Source: Escherichia coli (GTDB lineage Bacteria > Pseudomonadota > Gammaproteobacteria > Enterobacterales > Enterobacteriaceae). Taken from it: 64,000 nucleotides of DNA. How positions within the stretch are numbered: the first letter of the stretch is position 1; the number at the start of each line of letters is the position of its first letter. Where the stretch lies: the NCBI RefSeq assembly GCF_045037415.1, contig NZ_CP173438.1; one strand, 5' to 3'. Positions 36,001-42,000 of this stretch are shown piece by piece. Made by a program: the position numbers.

Positions 36001-39000
36001 CGCAAGGCCGATGCGCTGTATATTCTTGGCGATCTGTTTGAAGCCTGGATCGGCGACGACGATCCCAACCCACTTCATCACCAGATGGCCGCAGCGATCA
36101 AAGCGGTATCCGATTCCGGCGTTCCCTGTTATTTCATTCATGGCAACCGTGATTTTCTGCTCGGCAAACGCTTTGCCCGTGAAAGCGGCATGACGTTATT
36201 GCCGGAAGAAAAGGTGCTCGAACTTTATGGTCGTCGGGTGTTGATTATGCATGGCGACACGCTGTGCACCGATGACGCGGGTTATCAGGCTTTTCGCGCC
36301 AAAGTCCACAAACCCTGGCTGCAAACGCTATTCCTCGCCCTGCCGTTGTTTGTGCGCAAACGCATTGCCGCGCGAATGCGCGCGAACAGTAAAGAAGCCA
36401 ACAGCAGTAAATCGCTGGCGATCATGGACGTTAACCAAAACGCGGTGGTCAGTGCGATGGAAAAACATCAAGTGCAATGGCTGATCCACGGGCATACCCA
36501 TCGCCCGGCGGTGCATGAACTTATCGCCAATCAGCAACCTGCTTTTCGCGTGGTACTGGGTGCCTGGCATACAGAAGGTTCGATGGTGAAAGTCACGGCG
36601 GATGACGTTGAGCTAATCCATTTTCCTTTCTGACCACGAATGGACAGATTCTGAAAAAGCACCGAACTAACGCAACCTGTATATCTTTTTTAAAATCAGC
36701 AAGGTAATAATCTCTGAGTGAAATAACAACAGGGAATATTATTATGCAACGCTGCAACGGATTTTTGATTTCTGGCATCGCCCTTACGGCAGGAGCGCCA
36801 CTGTGTATTAGCTGGTTCGGTCTTGTCGGCTTCTATTTTGGCGCATTGTCACTGGTAGCTGCGGCGGTCATTTCCTGGATAGTCTATTTCTGGCTCATTT
36901 ATTTAGTACTCACCCGCCCCCATAACCAACGCTTTGTAGAAAGATATATATTGATTGTCGGTATATGCTTTTTACCGTGGAGCATTGTGCTGATATGGGC
37001 ATTCTTTGCCAGTTCAGCCAGAGCGCATAATCAACACGCAGAACAAATTAAAAACTCAACAACTGACGGTTAATTCCGCCTACGCAACCGTTTTCCTAGC
37101 ACTCTTTCCGTGCTATTCTCTGTGCCCTCTAAAGCCGAGAGTTGTGCACCACAGGAGTTTTAAGACGCATGTCTTCCCGCAATAATCCGGCGCGTGTCGC
37201 CATCGTGATGGGGTCCAAAAGCGACTGGGCTACCATGCAGTTCGCCGCCGAAATCTTCGAAATCCTGAATGTCCCGCACCACGTTGAAGTGGTTTCTGCT
37301 CACCGCACCCCCGATAAACTGTTCAGCTTCGCCGAAAGCGCCGAAGAGAACGGTTATCAGGTGATTATTGCGGGCGCAGGCGGCGCAGCGCACCTGCCTG
37401 GCATGATTGCCGCCAAAACGCTGGTGCCGGTGCTGGGCGTGCCAGTACAGAGCGCCGCACTGAGCGGTGTCGATAGCCTCTACTCCATCGTACAAATGCC
37501 GCGCGGCATTCCGGTGGGTACGCTGGCGATTGGTAAAGCTGGCGCGGCAAACGCGGCGTTACTGGCAGCACAAATTCTTGCGACTCATGATAAAGAACTG
37601 CACCAGCGTCTGAATGACTGGCGCAAAGCACAAACTGATGAAGTGCTGGAAAACCCGGACCCGCGAGGTGCGGCATGAAACAGGTTTGCGTCCTCGGTAA
37701 CGGGCAGTTAGGCCGTATGCTGCGTCAGGCAGGCGAACCGTTAGGCATTGCTGTCTGGCCGGTCGGGCTGGACGCTGAACCGGCGGCGGTGCCTTTTCAA
37801 CAAAGCGTGATTACCGCTGAGATCGAACGCTGGCCGGAAACTGCATTAACCCGCGAGCTGGCGCGCCAGCCGGCCTTTGTGAACCGCGATGTGTTCCCGA
37901 TTATTGCCGACCGTCTGACTCAGAAGCAGCTTTTCGATAAGCTCCACCTGCCGACCGCACCGTGGCAGTTACTTGCCGAACGCAGCGAGTGGCCTGCGGT
38001 GTTTGATCGTTTAGGTGAGCTGGCGATTGTTAAGCGCCGCACTGGTGGCTATGACGGACGCGGTCAATGGCGTTTACGCGCCGCTGAAACCGAACAGTTA
38101 CCGGCTGAATGCTACGGCGAATGTATTGTCGAGCAGGGCATAAACTTCTCAGGTGAAGTGTCGCTGGTTGGCGCGCGCGGTTTTGATGGCAGCACCGTGT
38201 TTTATCCGCTGACGCATAACCTGCATCAGGACGGCATTTTGCGCACCAGCGTCGCTTTCCCGCAGGCCAACGCACAGCTGCAGGCGCAAGCTGAAGAGAT
38301 GTTGTCGGCGATTATGCAGGAGCTGGGCTATGTGGGCGTGATGGCGATGGAGTGTTTTGTCACGCCGCAAGGTCTGCTGATCAACGAACTGGCTCCGCGT
38401 GTGCATAACAGTGGGCACTGGACGCAAAACGGTGCCAGCATCAGCCAGTTTGAGCTACATCTGCGGGCAATTACCGATCTGCCGTTACCGCAACCAGTAG
38501 TGAATAATCCGTCGGTGATGATCAATCTGATTGGTAGCGATCTGAATTATGACTGGCTGAAACTGCCGCTTGTGCATCTGCACTGGTACGACAAAGAAGT
38601 CCGTCCGGGCCGTAAAGTGGGGCATTTAAATTTGACCGACAGCGACACATCGCATCTGACCGCGACGCTGGAAGCCTTAATCCCGCTGCTGCCACCGGAG
38701 TATGCCAGCGGCGTGATGTGGGCGCAGAGTAAGTTCAGTTAACCTGGTGCTCATTTGATTGCCGGATGCGGCGTGAACGCCTTATCCGGCCTACCGTTCC
38801 AACACCGCCTGTAGACCTGATAAGACGCACCAGCATCGCATCAGGCATGGTGTGCCGATTGCCGGATGCGGCGTGAACGCCTTATCCGGCCTACCGTTCC
38901 GACACCGCCTGTAGACCTGATAAGACGCGCCAGCATCGCATCAGGCATGGTGTGCCGATTGCCGGATGCGGCGTGAACGCCTTATCCGGCCTACCGTTCC

Positions 39001-42000
39001 AACACCGCCTGTAGACCTGATAAGATGCGCCAGCATCGCATCAGGCATGGTGTGCCGATTGCCGGATGCGGCGTGAACGCCTTATCCGGCCTACCGTTCC
39101 GACACCGACTGTAGGCCTGATAAGACGCGCCAGCATCGCATCAGGCATGGTGTGCCGATTGCCGGATGCGGCGTGAACGCCTTATCCGGCCTACCGTTCC
39201 GACACCGCCTGTAGACCTGATAAGACGCGCCAGCATCGCATCAGGCTAGATGTGCCAATTGCCTGGTGCCCATCACTACAGCGAAATACAAGTCCCCGCT
39301 TCGCCCGCCAGCGTCTCTTCAATCCGCGATAACGCCCCAATCCACGCGGGTTTACCACGGCTTCTGACATAGCCACTCACCGCCGTTACCTTCGGCCCCA
39401 TCGAACCATCGGCTTTGGCAAATGGCGCTAACTCATCCGGTGTGGCATGGCGAATGGCACGTTGCTGCGGCGTTCCCCAGTTTTCATATACCGCATCAGC
39501 ATCGGTGAGGATCACCAGTCCATCGGCATTAATCTGCTCGGCGAGCAACGCAGCGGCGAGATCTTTATCAATCACCGCTTCACTCCCTGCCCCGTCTTCC
39601 GTCACAGGCACACCACCGCCGCCACTGCAAATCACCACATGCCCCTCTTTGAGCAACAACTCGATGGCTTCGCTGTCGAGAATTTTACGCGGTTGCGGAG
39701 ACGCCACCACCCGACGTAAATATTTACCATCACGTTTCATCTGCCAGCCGTAAGCCGCTTCCAGTGCCTCTTGTTCTTCTGGCTGATAAACCGGACCGAT
39801 AAACTTCTCTGGCTGTAAAAACGCCGGATCATCAGGCGAAACCTCAATGCGCGTCAGCACCGTCGTGACAGGCGGCATCTGCGGCTGTGCGCTCAAGCTC
39901 TGCGCCAGCATATAGCCAATCATCCCCTGGCTTTCCGCCACCAGTACATCCAGCGGATACGGTTCTACCTCTTTCCACGCCAGATTCTGTAACGCCAGCA
40001 GCCCCACCTGCGGTCCGTTGCCGTGAACAATTGCCAGCCGATAAGAACGGGCCAGGCGCGCCAGCGCGGGTACAGCACTGGCAATATTGCGATATTGATT
40101 TTTTGCCGTCAGCGCCTCACCGCGCTGGAGTAAGGCGTTGCCCCCAAGAGCCACAACCAGTGTTTTCATGGTTTCCCTTGTAATAATTGTTGGCCAAGCC
40201 AGAACCCCAGCAGCGTATCTGCCCCTGACGTATGCCCCAGCGCCAGCAGCGAATCGATCGCCGCTGCGGTACGTTTCGGGCAACTCAGCGCATGAACAAA
40301 GTGCAGGAGTGGCGAGGCGAAATATCCTTGCGCGGCATAACGTAAATAACTGACGCTCACCGCAGTGGTAACGAGTTGAAGATTGTCGGAACAGGCAAAA
40401 AACGGGCGACCGGAGCGCGCATCTAAAGCGCCATAATACCAGGCCGCCAGCAGCATTCCGCTCAGCGTGTCATCATGACTTGGCGTTAATCCGGGGCCTT
40501 TACCCAGCCAGTGCCGCCAGTCGGTCTTAACGCCATTGAGCGCGGCCTGAAAACAGTGACGAAACTGGCGTAATTCAGCAGGCAGCGGATCGCTTGCCGC
40601 CAATGCCAGTGGCCCGAAAAGCCCGGTTTCCTCCGCGCGTTGCATCCATGCAACGGCAAGCGGTTGAGGATGCGCAGGCGGCGTAATACGTAGCAAACAA
40701 TAACGCTGTGGCTGTTTAACCGTGAAACGCCCGAGACGAATACCTTGTGCCACAACCTGTGGTCGTTCATTGCCGCATAATCCACCGCATAACGCATCGA
40801 ATTGCGCGCGGCGAAGCACCCATCCGCCGGGGCCGAAACCACTCCCCTGACGATGCAGCGTTAACAGTTCGCCGCTTTCCGTCATCAGGTTAATCGCCCG
40901 CCGCCACACTCCCGCTAACCGCCAGGACTGGCGATAATTCGGTGCGCTACGGCTGGCAAGCAGAGGATGGATGATCGTCATTGTGCGTTCCTCAACCAAT
41001 CCCCATGCTTTCAGCCAGTGCTTCCAGCGCCTGTTCAAAGCACGCCAGCGGTGCCCGCACGGTGCCTGCGCCAATCTGCCCGATCCCCGCCTCTTTATGG
41101 GCGATACCGGTATTGATGAGTGGCGTAATGCCGGTTTCTACCACGCGACGAATGTCCAGCCCCAGGCACGCCCCCTGGAAATCCCAGCCGGGGATCTGCA
41201 ACTGCATATTGCGTTCAAGGTAAATTTCCGCCATCTCTTCAGATACCGCTCTGGCCGCTTCCATGCCACCCGCACCGACAAAGCGCGTTACGCCAGGCGC
41301 TGCGATCATTGCCGCACCTCCGATACCAAAGGTTTCGGTAATCGCGCTATCGCCCATATCCGGGTTCGCCTGCTCCTGCGAGAAGCCGGTGAAAAACAGA
41401 CCTTGCGGAGTGTTTACAGGCGCAGTAAACCAGCGTTCACCCAGCCCGCTTACCCGAATCCCGAACATATTGCCGTTGCGGGTCATAGCCGTAACGATGC
41501 TGCCTGCGCGGATCATCGCGCCTGCATCCATCGCCGCCTTGCAGTAGGCCATCGCGAGGTTGAGGAAGAACTGATCGGTCACGCTGAGAAAATCCATCAC
41601 TTCCGCAATGTGCTGTTTATCATGATCGAGGCGAGCAATTTGTGGGGCCAGCGTACGCATTAACAGTGCTGAGGAAGCAATATTGCGTTGATGGAACTCA
41701 TCGCCCATGGTAATGCCCTGCGCCATCATTGCCGTGAGATCGATACCGCGCTCCATGCGCCCCAGCGCCGCGCTTAATACTGGCATTAACACATCGCGCA
41801 TCCAGCGATGGCGAGTCAGGACATCTTCGCCGTAAGCGCCAAAACGCATCACTTTGCCGATACCTTCGTTGAGGTTGCAGTACGCCCGGTTGCCGTCGGT
41901 CACGTTCTCGACCACCAGCATCGGCATACTGGCAGAAGTAATGCCGCCCATTGGCCCGACGGCATTCACATGGTGACAAGGAATGAAGTTCACTTCCCCC

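Follow-up and report, generated by a model that had tools for sequence, protein, structure and literature searches.

What is the tandem repeat that separates purK from ybcF in this Escherichia coli chromosome, is its length of five units genuine, and what might it do for the two genes that run towards it? In the window, the 64,000-nucleotide stretch of DNA analysed here, the array is extragenic and sits between the stop codons of two convergent genes: purK (37675-38742, plus strand; NCBIfam NF004678, E=1e-201; TAA stop at 38740-38742), which encodes 5-(carboxyamino)imidazole ribonucleotide synthase and is the last gene of purEK, and ybcF (39276-40169, minus strand; NCBIfam NF006926, E=1e-186; TAG stop at 39276-39278), which encodes a carbamate kinase. 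It occupies the 533-bp spacer where the convergent purEK and fdrA-ylbE-ylbF-ybcF transcription units share their 3' region. In RefSeq, the SK1144 locus, identical to this one, is annotated with the same two genes, and the spacer is left blank.

Tandem Repeats Finder (TRF) reports a single array at 38757-39263, with a period of 100, 5.1 copies, 96% matches, 0% indels and a score of 944, and no other tandem repeat in the 64-kb window scores 80 or more. The sequence-only reading had placed five tandem units of about 100 bp at 38759-39260, within 3 bases of this interval, and its description of paired, different REP palindromes forming a BIME in the purK-ybcF spacer is upheld in the form of Y plus Z2 doublets. 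Each unit is composed, in order, of a 34-nt Y-type REP, a 16-nt linker, a 36-nt Z2-type REP in inverted orientation and a 14-nt linker, both palindromes being imperfect (Y, GCCGGATGCGGCGTGAACGCCTTATCCGGCCTAC; Z2, in the opposite orientation, GTAGACCTGATAAGACGCGCCAGCATCGCATCAGGC). The first Y copy (38761-38794, plus strand, with its CTAC tail on that strand) begins after an 18-nt gap from the purK stop (38743-38760, CCTGGTGCTCATTTGATT), the last four bases of which TRF assigns to the first repeat unit (start 38757); its 14-nt inverted-repeat arms are 86% complementary with a conserved GC/AA internal mismatch, and its DNA hairpin has a folding energy of -11.3 kcal/mol (z=-4.3). Y copies 2-5 (38861-38894, 38961-38994, 39061-39094 and 39161-39194, plus strand) are identical to copy 1, making all five the same. 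The tail-to-tail linker (CGTTCCRACACCGMCT) follows at 38795-38810, is C-rich on the plus strand (7-8 C, 2-3 G) and recurs at +100, +200, +300 and +400. The first Z2 copy (38811-38846) lies on the minus strand, where its head GCCTGATGCG is read, with GTAG reading on the plus strand, and the remaining four, also on the minus strand, are at 38911-38946, 39011-39046, 39111-39146 and 39211-39246, the last Z2 stem ending 29 nt from the ybcF stop. The short head-to-head linker (38847-38860 on the plus strand, ATGGTGTGCCGATT, C-rich on the minus strand) recurs at +100, +200 and +300, and its last occurrence, at 39247-39260, is the variant TAGATGTGCCAATT. The fraction beyond five in the TRF count corresponds to the start of a sixth unit (AATTGCC) that runs into a degenerate REP head, GCCTGGTGC (39257-39269, plus strand).

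Alignment of the five units revealed 2-5 pairwise differences per 100 positions and eight variable columns. Three of these are A/G, one is C/A and one C/T, and the other three fall at the 3' edge of the last unit; the earlier description of differences at just a few A/G positions was roughly right. Of the 12 occurrences of the REP core motif GCCKGATGCGRCG across the window, where 0.55 would be expected by chance, 10 fall inside the array, and GC content is 61% in the array versus 50.5% in the window. As RNA, the unit folds into hairpins on both strands, at -39.2 kcal/mol for the plus strand (z -2.5) and -46.4 kcal/mol for the minus strand (z -3.7). No ORF longer than 37 amino acids lies inside the array.

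Arrays of this kind are already known, and BIME-2 arrays and the variation of their copy number between strains have been described since the 1990s. A BIME-2 repeats a combination of z2 and y REPs several times in tandem, joined by short linkers (head-to-head S; tail-to-tail s, l or r), with a strain-variable copy number, and the hallmarks of a REP are a GTAG/CTAC tetranucleotide at the foot of the stem and a two-base internal stem mismatch (PMC3333891). At purK-ybcF, five Y and five Z2 REPs alternate in inverted orientation, with the tetranucleotide present in the CCTAC end of Y and the GTAG start of Z2 and the GC/AA mismatch in the stems of both. The copies stand in tandem with short linkers at the 3' ends of transcription units, and their number varies between strains. 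We conclude that the array is an ordinary E. coli BIME-2 made of five head-to-tail doublets of Y and inverted Z2.

By analogy with characterized elements, the array likely serves as a barrier of RNA hairpins, or a partial terminator, that works in both directions where the two genes end and, in addition, as a gyrase site. Transcripts arriving from either side would fold into a string of stable hairpins that would slow 3'-to-5' exonucleases and protect the upstream mRNA; the hairpins may also impose a partial, largely Rho-dependent attenuation, and convergent transcription would therefore not enter the opposite gene. In published work, REP325 partially terminates transcription in a Rho-dependent manner and also stabilises mRNA, and where REPs separate convergent genes both genes tend to be more highly expressed, about 40% of such REPs being in bidirectional terminators, while a 2026 preprint describes REP effects as context-dependent and finds that terminal REPs are not generally tied to longer mRNA half-lives. 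The Y palindromes, for their part, may place gyrase where the positive supercoils of two converging polymerases build up, and are likely the preferred sites of gyrase cleavage and binding, as gyrase binds and cleaves other BIME-2 elements in vivo and its cleavage sites are over-represented in BIME-2, mostly in y-type REPs (PMC6379681); the text of the gyrase Topo-seq supplements, which report on K-12 with its 1.7-unit remnant only, names neither purK nor ybcF. Copy number would shift in whole units of 100 bp when near-identical units recombine unequally or replication slips between them, possibly aided by the REP-associated transposase TnpA-REP. Taken jointly, BIME-2 identity and this model of RNA barrier, gyrase site and changing copy number constitute the best explanation of the locus, with a probability of roughly 85%. 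Since lineages exist with a single unit or without any, copy number probably has a small, tuning-like effect on fitness.

The comparison of copy number across E. coli that the sequence-only reading had proposed confirmed its suspicion of a length-polymorphic locus. Among 118 sampled complete chromosomes, the spacer holds five units in 15, three in two, two in six, one in 45, a K-12-type remnant of 1.7 units in 45 and no REP in five, such that the BIME is kept in 113 of them (~96%). The 60 sampled genomes with identical flanks (ST131-type) carry five units in 59 cases and four in the remaining one, the four-unit allele being the window allele with an exact loss of unit 3. Alleles of 0, 1, ~1.7, 2, 3, 4 and 5 units thus exist at the locus, five being the largest seen, with spacers of 132, 232, 332, 433 and 532/533 bp. 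The window allele is the ST131 allele, and five units are nearly fixed there; a second five-unit allele, distinct in sequence, is present in APEC O2-211, from another B2 lineage, and the spacer of ST95-type strains is devoid of any REP. Because ST95-type strains do without REPs and the majority of strains carry one unit or two, purK and ybcF do not need five units to function. The site tolerates zero to five units, and even a different small repeat.

This tolerance is also what would be seen if the array were a selfish or neutral repeat, that is, if REPs and BIMEs proliferated through TnpA-REP or recombination at a permissive site with no locally selected function and the five units of ST131 were a hitch-hiking accident of clonal expansion. 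We consider such an origin a real possibility, although not the probable one. TnpA-REP cleaves and recombines BIMEs in vitro (PMC3333891), the five-unit allele hardly occurs outside a clonal group whose flanks are identical, and the homogeneity of the ST131 units (2-5 differences per 100 bp) suggests recent amplification, but retention of the BIME in ~96% of the sampled genomes and the separate five-unit allele of APEC O2-211 count against it. Moreover, a selfish origin is compatible with the barrier and gyrase model, as hairpins in a 3' UTR affect the fate of the RNA whatever their origin. The five-unit allele could also be a lineage-specific regulatory allele that alters expression relative to alleles of 0-2 units, which we judge unlikely. 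If true, its enlarged two-way hairpin and gyrase barrier might measurably alter how stable purEK mRNA is, how much transcription reads through into the anaerobic allantoin/carbamate-kinase operon, or supercoiling around the array, a ladder of naRNA4-like RNAs might also arise from the ybcF-sense strand, and REP copy number would act as a natural 'dial' on expression in a pandemic clone.

The naRNA4 resemblance raises another alternative, in which, as proposed for REP325, a minus-strand transcript would be processed into two-hairpin RNAs of ~78 nt; by binding HU and bridging cruciform DNA, these would condense the chromosome. Four minus-strand modules (Y, short linker and Z2) on the ybcF-sense strand, at 38814-38891 (76.4 bits), 38914-38991 (78.0 bits), 39014-39091 (79.3 bits) and 39114-39191 (81.8 bits), align over the full length (1-77 of 77) of the naRNA4 covariance model (Rfam RF02564), which is derived from REP325 and has the Z2 unit of REP325 as its second hairpin, all above the gathering score of 59.5 bits. 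The modules agree with the REP325 consensus at 68-70 of 79 aligned columns, with 70 in module 4, whose RNA fold reaches -41 kcal/mol (z=-4.35), and HU binding and a role in condensation have been reported for naRNA4 (Qian et al., 2015; PMC4550694). Two stem transitions present in most Z2 copies also give G·U pairs in the minus-strand RNA and C·A mismatches on the plus strand, but an asymmetry at two sites has a chance probability of about one in four. The Rfam model matches an unrelated K-12 BIME with 69 bits, which indicates that it recognises generic Y-S-Z2 doublets; since other BIME-2 doublets match as well, the hits denote kinship and not a specific function. No sigma-70 promoter-like site was found in the array, nor an intrinsic-terminator-like one. 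What naRNA4 does in the cell is itself under dispute: in a 2026 preprint from the same laboratories, nucleoid volume was unchanged by REP325 deletion or overexpression, REP-REP contacts were neither enriched nor HU-dependent, and a stable HU-crfDNA-naRNA4 complex did not form. An naRNA4 function for this locus is therefore improbable.

Slightly more doubtful again is a role in translational down-regulation, by which the first REP would stall ribosomes at the purK or ybcF stop codon and provoke mRNA cleavage and trans-translation. The first Y stem does begin near the purK stop, but according to PMC12306157, which cites Liang, Rudd and Deutscher 2015, such stalling needs less than 16 nt between stop and REP, compared to the 18 nt (purK) and 29 nt (ybcF) found here. 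That the true copy number is not five, the assembler having expanded or collapsed the array, is very unlikely, because 59 of the 60 genomes with identical flanks hold five units. Arrays of 100-bp units at 96-99% identity do exceed the length of short reads, and the single ST131 assembly with four units is possibly itself a collapse; against an artefact, the same 1201-bp stretch recurs at 100% identity in all genomes with 100% flanks from two samples (6/6 and 6/6) and in 59 of the 60 best matches (EC958, JJ2434 and SE15 among them), about 550 records match it at 99% or more, and the SNPs that tell the units apart follow a fixed order. An IHF-binding BIME-1 (RIB/RIP) element, for which nothing speaks beyond the presence of REPs, has next to no likelihood, given a second palindrome of the Z2 type, linkers of 14 and 16 nt, copies in tandem and an IHF consensus WATCAANNNNTTR that is absent from 38743-39275 even with one mismatch allowed. 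Because the array is a BIME-2 without an IHF consensus, whereas IHF sites are a feature of the L linker in BIME-1, which is single-copy (PMC3333891), only gyrase binding is expected; the earlier proposal that the array may bind IHF or gyrase thus keeps its gyrase half, by analogy, and loses its IHF half.

As a BIME-2, the locus provides a clean length marker that moves in 100-bp steps, with five units nearly fixed in ST131 and 0-3 in other lineages, and it might be used for PCR typing or as a check of assembly quality. With the spacer blank in RefSeq, Rfam-based pipelines may label four 'naRNA4 genes' in it, which would over-read a generic BIME-2. The natural series of 0, 1, 2, 3, 4 and 5 units at one convergent gene pair also offers a convenient system for examining the recent idea of REPs as two-way terminators and stabilisers. 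Beyond annotation the importance is small, K-12 also having a BIME at this locus.

Comparison with known systems places the array accordingly. CRISPR arrays share palindromic repeats at regular spacing, but a CRISPR assignment was rejected: the segments between the palindromes are themselves repeated with the unit and leave no unique spacers, and the Rfam CRISPR-DR48 match in the array is weak (22.9 bits versus a gathering score of 50). BIME-1 or RIB/RIP elements likewise join a Y REP to an inverted partner at gene 3' ends, but they consist of a single Y plus Z1 pair with a long L linker containing an IHF site (PMC3333891), and the purK-ybcF array departs from them in partner, linker and copy number. 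The K-12 MG1655 remnant has the same locus, gene flanks and Y and Z2 types, but a 194-bp spacer, in which a complete Y-Z2 unit is accompanied by a second one with an internal deletion in its Y, and no naRNA4 match above the gathering score. REP325, located between yjdM and yjdN in K-12, is described as a run of 12 units in which Z2 and Y alternate (bioRxiv 10.64898/2026.03.23.713779) and has a period of 100 with 5.8 copies. It resembles the array in its 100-bp period and its module of Y, short linker and Z2; it differs in linker sequences, in naRNA4 scores (95-111 bits versus 75-87) and in lying between tandem genes of one operon rather than between convergent genes. The closest match is the E. 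coli BIME-2 of the Gilson/Bachellier/Hofnung nomenclature (via Ton-Hoang et al., 2012; PMC3333891), with its alternating, opposed Y and Z2 REPs, short linkers, tandem copies at gene 3' ends, units well conserved within a locus and strain-variable number, from which the purK-ybcF array shows no difference of substance.

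Tandem Repeats Finder (TRF) delineated a single array at positions 38757-39263, with a period of 100, 5.1 copies, 96% matches and no indels (score 944), confirming the five-copy tandem repeat called in the sequence-only reading, as well as the coordinates given there. It was the sole tandem repeat with a TRF score of at least 80 in the 64-kb window, the longest period covered being 500, so that paralogues with a 675-bp period were overlooked. The array takes up most of the 533-bp spacer between two convergent genes, purK (37675-38742, plus strand) and the carbamate-kinase gene ybcF (39276-40169, minus strand), both assigned by NCBIfam equivalog models and from how RefSeq annotates a locus identical to this one, and has a G+C content of 61% versus 50.5% for the window. 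Each unit combines two palindromes, one of 34 nt (GCCGGATGCGGCGTGAACGCCTTATCCGGCCTAC) and an oppositely oriented one of 36 nt (GTAGACCTGATAAGACGCGCCAGCATCGCATCAGGC), with two linkers: 16 nt, C-rich on the plus strand, after the 34-nt palindrome, and 14 nt, C-rich on the minus strand, after the 36-nt one. Both palindromes carry GTAG/CTAC at the foot of the stem and a two-base internal mismatch, REP hallmarks that are required for recognition by the REP-associated transposase (Ton-Hoang et al., PMC3333891). BIME-2 elements are defined as several tandem copies of z2 and y REPs joined by short linkers, the copy number at a locus varying between strains (PMC3333891), and the Y plus Z2 units uphold the earlier description of a BIME array of paired REP palindromes. 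Alignment of the five units revealed 2-5 differences per 100 positions; the differences are as few as had been claimed, but they are not restricted to A/G positions, since of the eight variable columns three are A/G, one is C/A, one is C/T and the other three fall at the 3' edge of the last unit. We conclude that the array is a genuine, correctly described and non-artefactual repeat of a long-known kind, BIME-2. The K-12 RefSeq record lists no repeat feature in the purK-ybcF spacer, to which no official REP number can therefore be attached, and a literature search yielded no named REP, VNTR or MLVA marker specific to purK-ybcF.

Several features of the surrounding DNA deserve mention. The 8-mer CCTGGTGC directly borders the array on either side (38743-38750 and 39262-39269); its right copy resembles a degenerate REP head (GCCTGGTGC versus GCCTGATGC), the left array flank is similar to the head-to-head linker, and the pair may be a trace of array construction or chance. 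The only other REP-core-like matches in the 64-kb window, at 11987-11999 and 60194-60206 with one mismatch each, are probably isolated REPs. The lpxH-purE spacer (36634-37168) measures about 535 bp versus 117 bp in K-12, the additional DNA being A+T-rich, and holds a 109-aa ORF (36744-37073, plus strand), a RefSeq hypothetical with no Pfam match that looks hydrophobic. On the minus strand, an ORF at 62440-63846 encodes a T6SS Tle1-like phospholipase catalytic domain (PF09994, E=6e-14), and after it come three DUF2931 paralogues in tandem (61791-62513, 61116-61784 and 60441-61109), 85-86% identical with a 675-bp period; judged from sequence, 60441-63846 resembles a type VI effector gene accompanied by three copies of a putative immunity gene.

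Copy number was surveyed in two systematic 'spread' samples from 5,426 complete E. coli genomes, one queried with the whole 1201-bp region and the other with the two 334-bp flanks only; each gave 59 chromosomes with a readable flank distance (118 in total), and representative alleles were read in sequence. Five units (spacer of 532-533 bp) were present in 15 of the 118 chromosomes, three units (332 bp) in two, two units (232-233 bp) in six and one unit (124-138 bp) in 45, while another 45 had the K-12 type (194 or 204 bp), in which one unit is accompanied by a unit with an internally deleted Y. The remaining five resembled the ST95-type strain MS7163 (L011 644-795), whose 152-bp spacer contains no REP and a different G+C-rich repeat (…CCCTCACCCTAACCCTCTCCCCACAGGGGCGAGGGGAC…) that resembles E. 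coli boxC-type repeats. The spacer thus holds zero to five units across the genomes compared, as the predicted length polymorphism had it, and no allele of more than five units occurred among the 118 sampled chromosomes. APEC O2-211-type strains carry a second five-unit allele, whose left flank is not the same and whose units have diverged more, implying that expansion occurred more than once or that this allele is old. About 12 genomes did not have the purK-side and ybcF-side flanks joined in one place. One of them, WP5-S17-ESBL-11 (L013 4334-4420), has lost ybcF, ylbF, ylbE, fdrA, allD and allC, and downstream of its purK come one BIME unit and then a shortened allE, the annotated CDS of which begins within the REP, placing one deletion end-point at the BIME; the others may have IS insertions or longer arrays.

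The window shares identical flanks with ST131 genomes, for example EC958, JJ2434 and SE15, and in 59 of the 60 best flank matches the distance between the flanks is exactly that of the window; matches of at least 99% numbered about 550 records for the whole region and 547-558 for the flanks. The ST131 strain WP4-W18-ESBL-08 (L014 435-867) has a spacing 100 bp shorter, with four units corresponding to the window array minus exactly unit 3, reflecting either genuine loss of the unit or collapse of the array in its assembly. This comparison of assembled genomes makes it very unlikely that the window array is an assembly artefact, and the constancy of five units in 59 of 60 ST131-type genomes suggests a slow rather than a fast VNTR. 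Copy number shifts by whole units, which fits unequal recombination or slippage, or recombination mediated by TnpA-REP, an activity on BIMEs demonstrated in vitro (PMC3333891).

By analogy with characterized REPs, the array is most likely a two-way 3'-end element. REP325 of K-12 is a partially Rho-dependent attenuator and stabilizer of upstream mRNA that gives a ladder of transcripts ending in hairpins (Harris et al., bioRxiv 10.64898/2026.03.23.713779); the presence of REPs between two convergent genes correlated with increased expression of the pair, and about 40% of these REPs lie within predicted bidirectional terminators (bioRxiv 10.64898/2026.03.23.713779). The predicted fold of the unit has an energy of -46.4 kcal/mol (z -3.7) on the minus strand and -39.2 kcal/mol (z -2.5) on the plus strand; in RNA, such hairpins would act as a barrier to exonucleases and attenuate transcription running on from purEK and the ybcF operon. 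On each strand, every unit has one unpaired C-rich linker, a feature compatible with Rho loading but no proof of it. BIME-2 elements are enriched in gyrase cleavage sites, chiefly within their y-type REPs, and the enrichment does not depend on transcription (Sutormin et al., PMC6379681); the five Y palindromes could serve as gyrase sites where the positive supercoils of converging polymerases meet; the text of the gyrase Topo-seq supplement does not mention purK or ybcF. Because one-unit and no-unit lineages are common, any effect of the array would be one of tuning. It is also possible that the array is a neutral or selfish repeat, an explanation that overlaps with a two-way 3'-end role. Within the Z2 copies (38811-39246), four of five have the stem transition GTAGGC to GTAGAC and four of five the GACGC…GCATC state, both giving a G·U pair in minus-strand (ybcF-sense) RNA and a C·A mismatch in plus-strand RNA, and compensated C-G and T-A states at these sites are found in other alleles. 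These G·U pairs weakly hint at RNA-level selection on the minus strand, weakly because chance alone could bring two sites into agreement about once in four cases.

A different role would follow from the naRNA4/HU nucleoid model (PMC4550694), naRNA4 being an RNA derived from REP325. An Rfam scan returned four full-length naRNA4 (RF02564) matches on the minus strand, at 38814-38891, 38914-38991, 39014-39091 and 39114-39191, scoring 76-82 bits (gathering score 59.5), each reaching from the Y of one unit through the short linker to the Z2 of the unit before it; plus-strand versions stayed under threshold (50-56 bits), and among the purK-ybcF alleles only multi-unit ones matched. However, the model also accepts an unrelated BIME near phnD in K-12 (69 bits), which indicates that it recognizes Y-S-Z2 doublets generally, and the nucleoid model is weakened both by this non-specificity and by a 2026 preprint (bioRxiv 10.64898/2026.03.23.713779). 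The only other RNA-family matches in the window were an STnc480 sRNA (47354-47420, minus strand, 84 bits, gathering score 72) and a tRNA gene (31766-31839, minus strand).

The IHF binding mentioned in the sequence-only reading found no support, as the array has no match to the IHF consensus (WATCAANNNNTTR) even with one mismatch allowed, and it lacks the defining features of an IHF-binding BIME-1. A ribosome-stalling REP is rejected by stop-to-REP distances of 18 and 29 nt, beyond the limit of less than 16 nt stated in PMC12306157 (citing Liang 2015). Coding is excluded by periodic ORFs of at most 37 aa and a 100-bp unit that is not a multiple of three, and CRISPR by an Rfam match far under threshold and the lack of unique spacers; a scan of the array detected no sigma-70 promoter-like or intrinsic-terminator-like site.

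Among the closest known systems is REP325, located between yjdM and yjdN in K-12, which has the same 100-bp period as the window array and 5.8 copies. Its own modules score 95-111 bits on the naRNA4 model; in the window modules, 68-70 of 79 aligned columns agree with the REP325 consensus, the differences lying mostly in the linker. At the level of sequence, the naRNA4 matches establish that the purK-ybcF array is of the same kind as REP325, a kinship that is no evidence of a functional naRNA.
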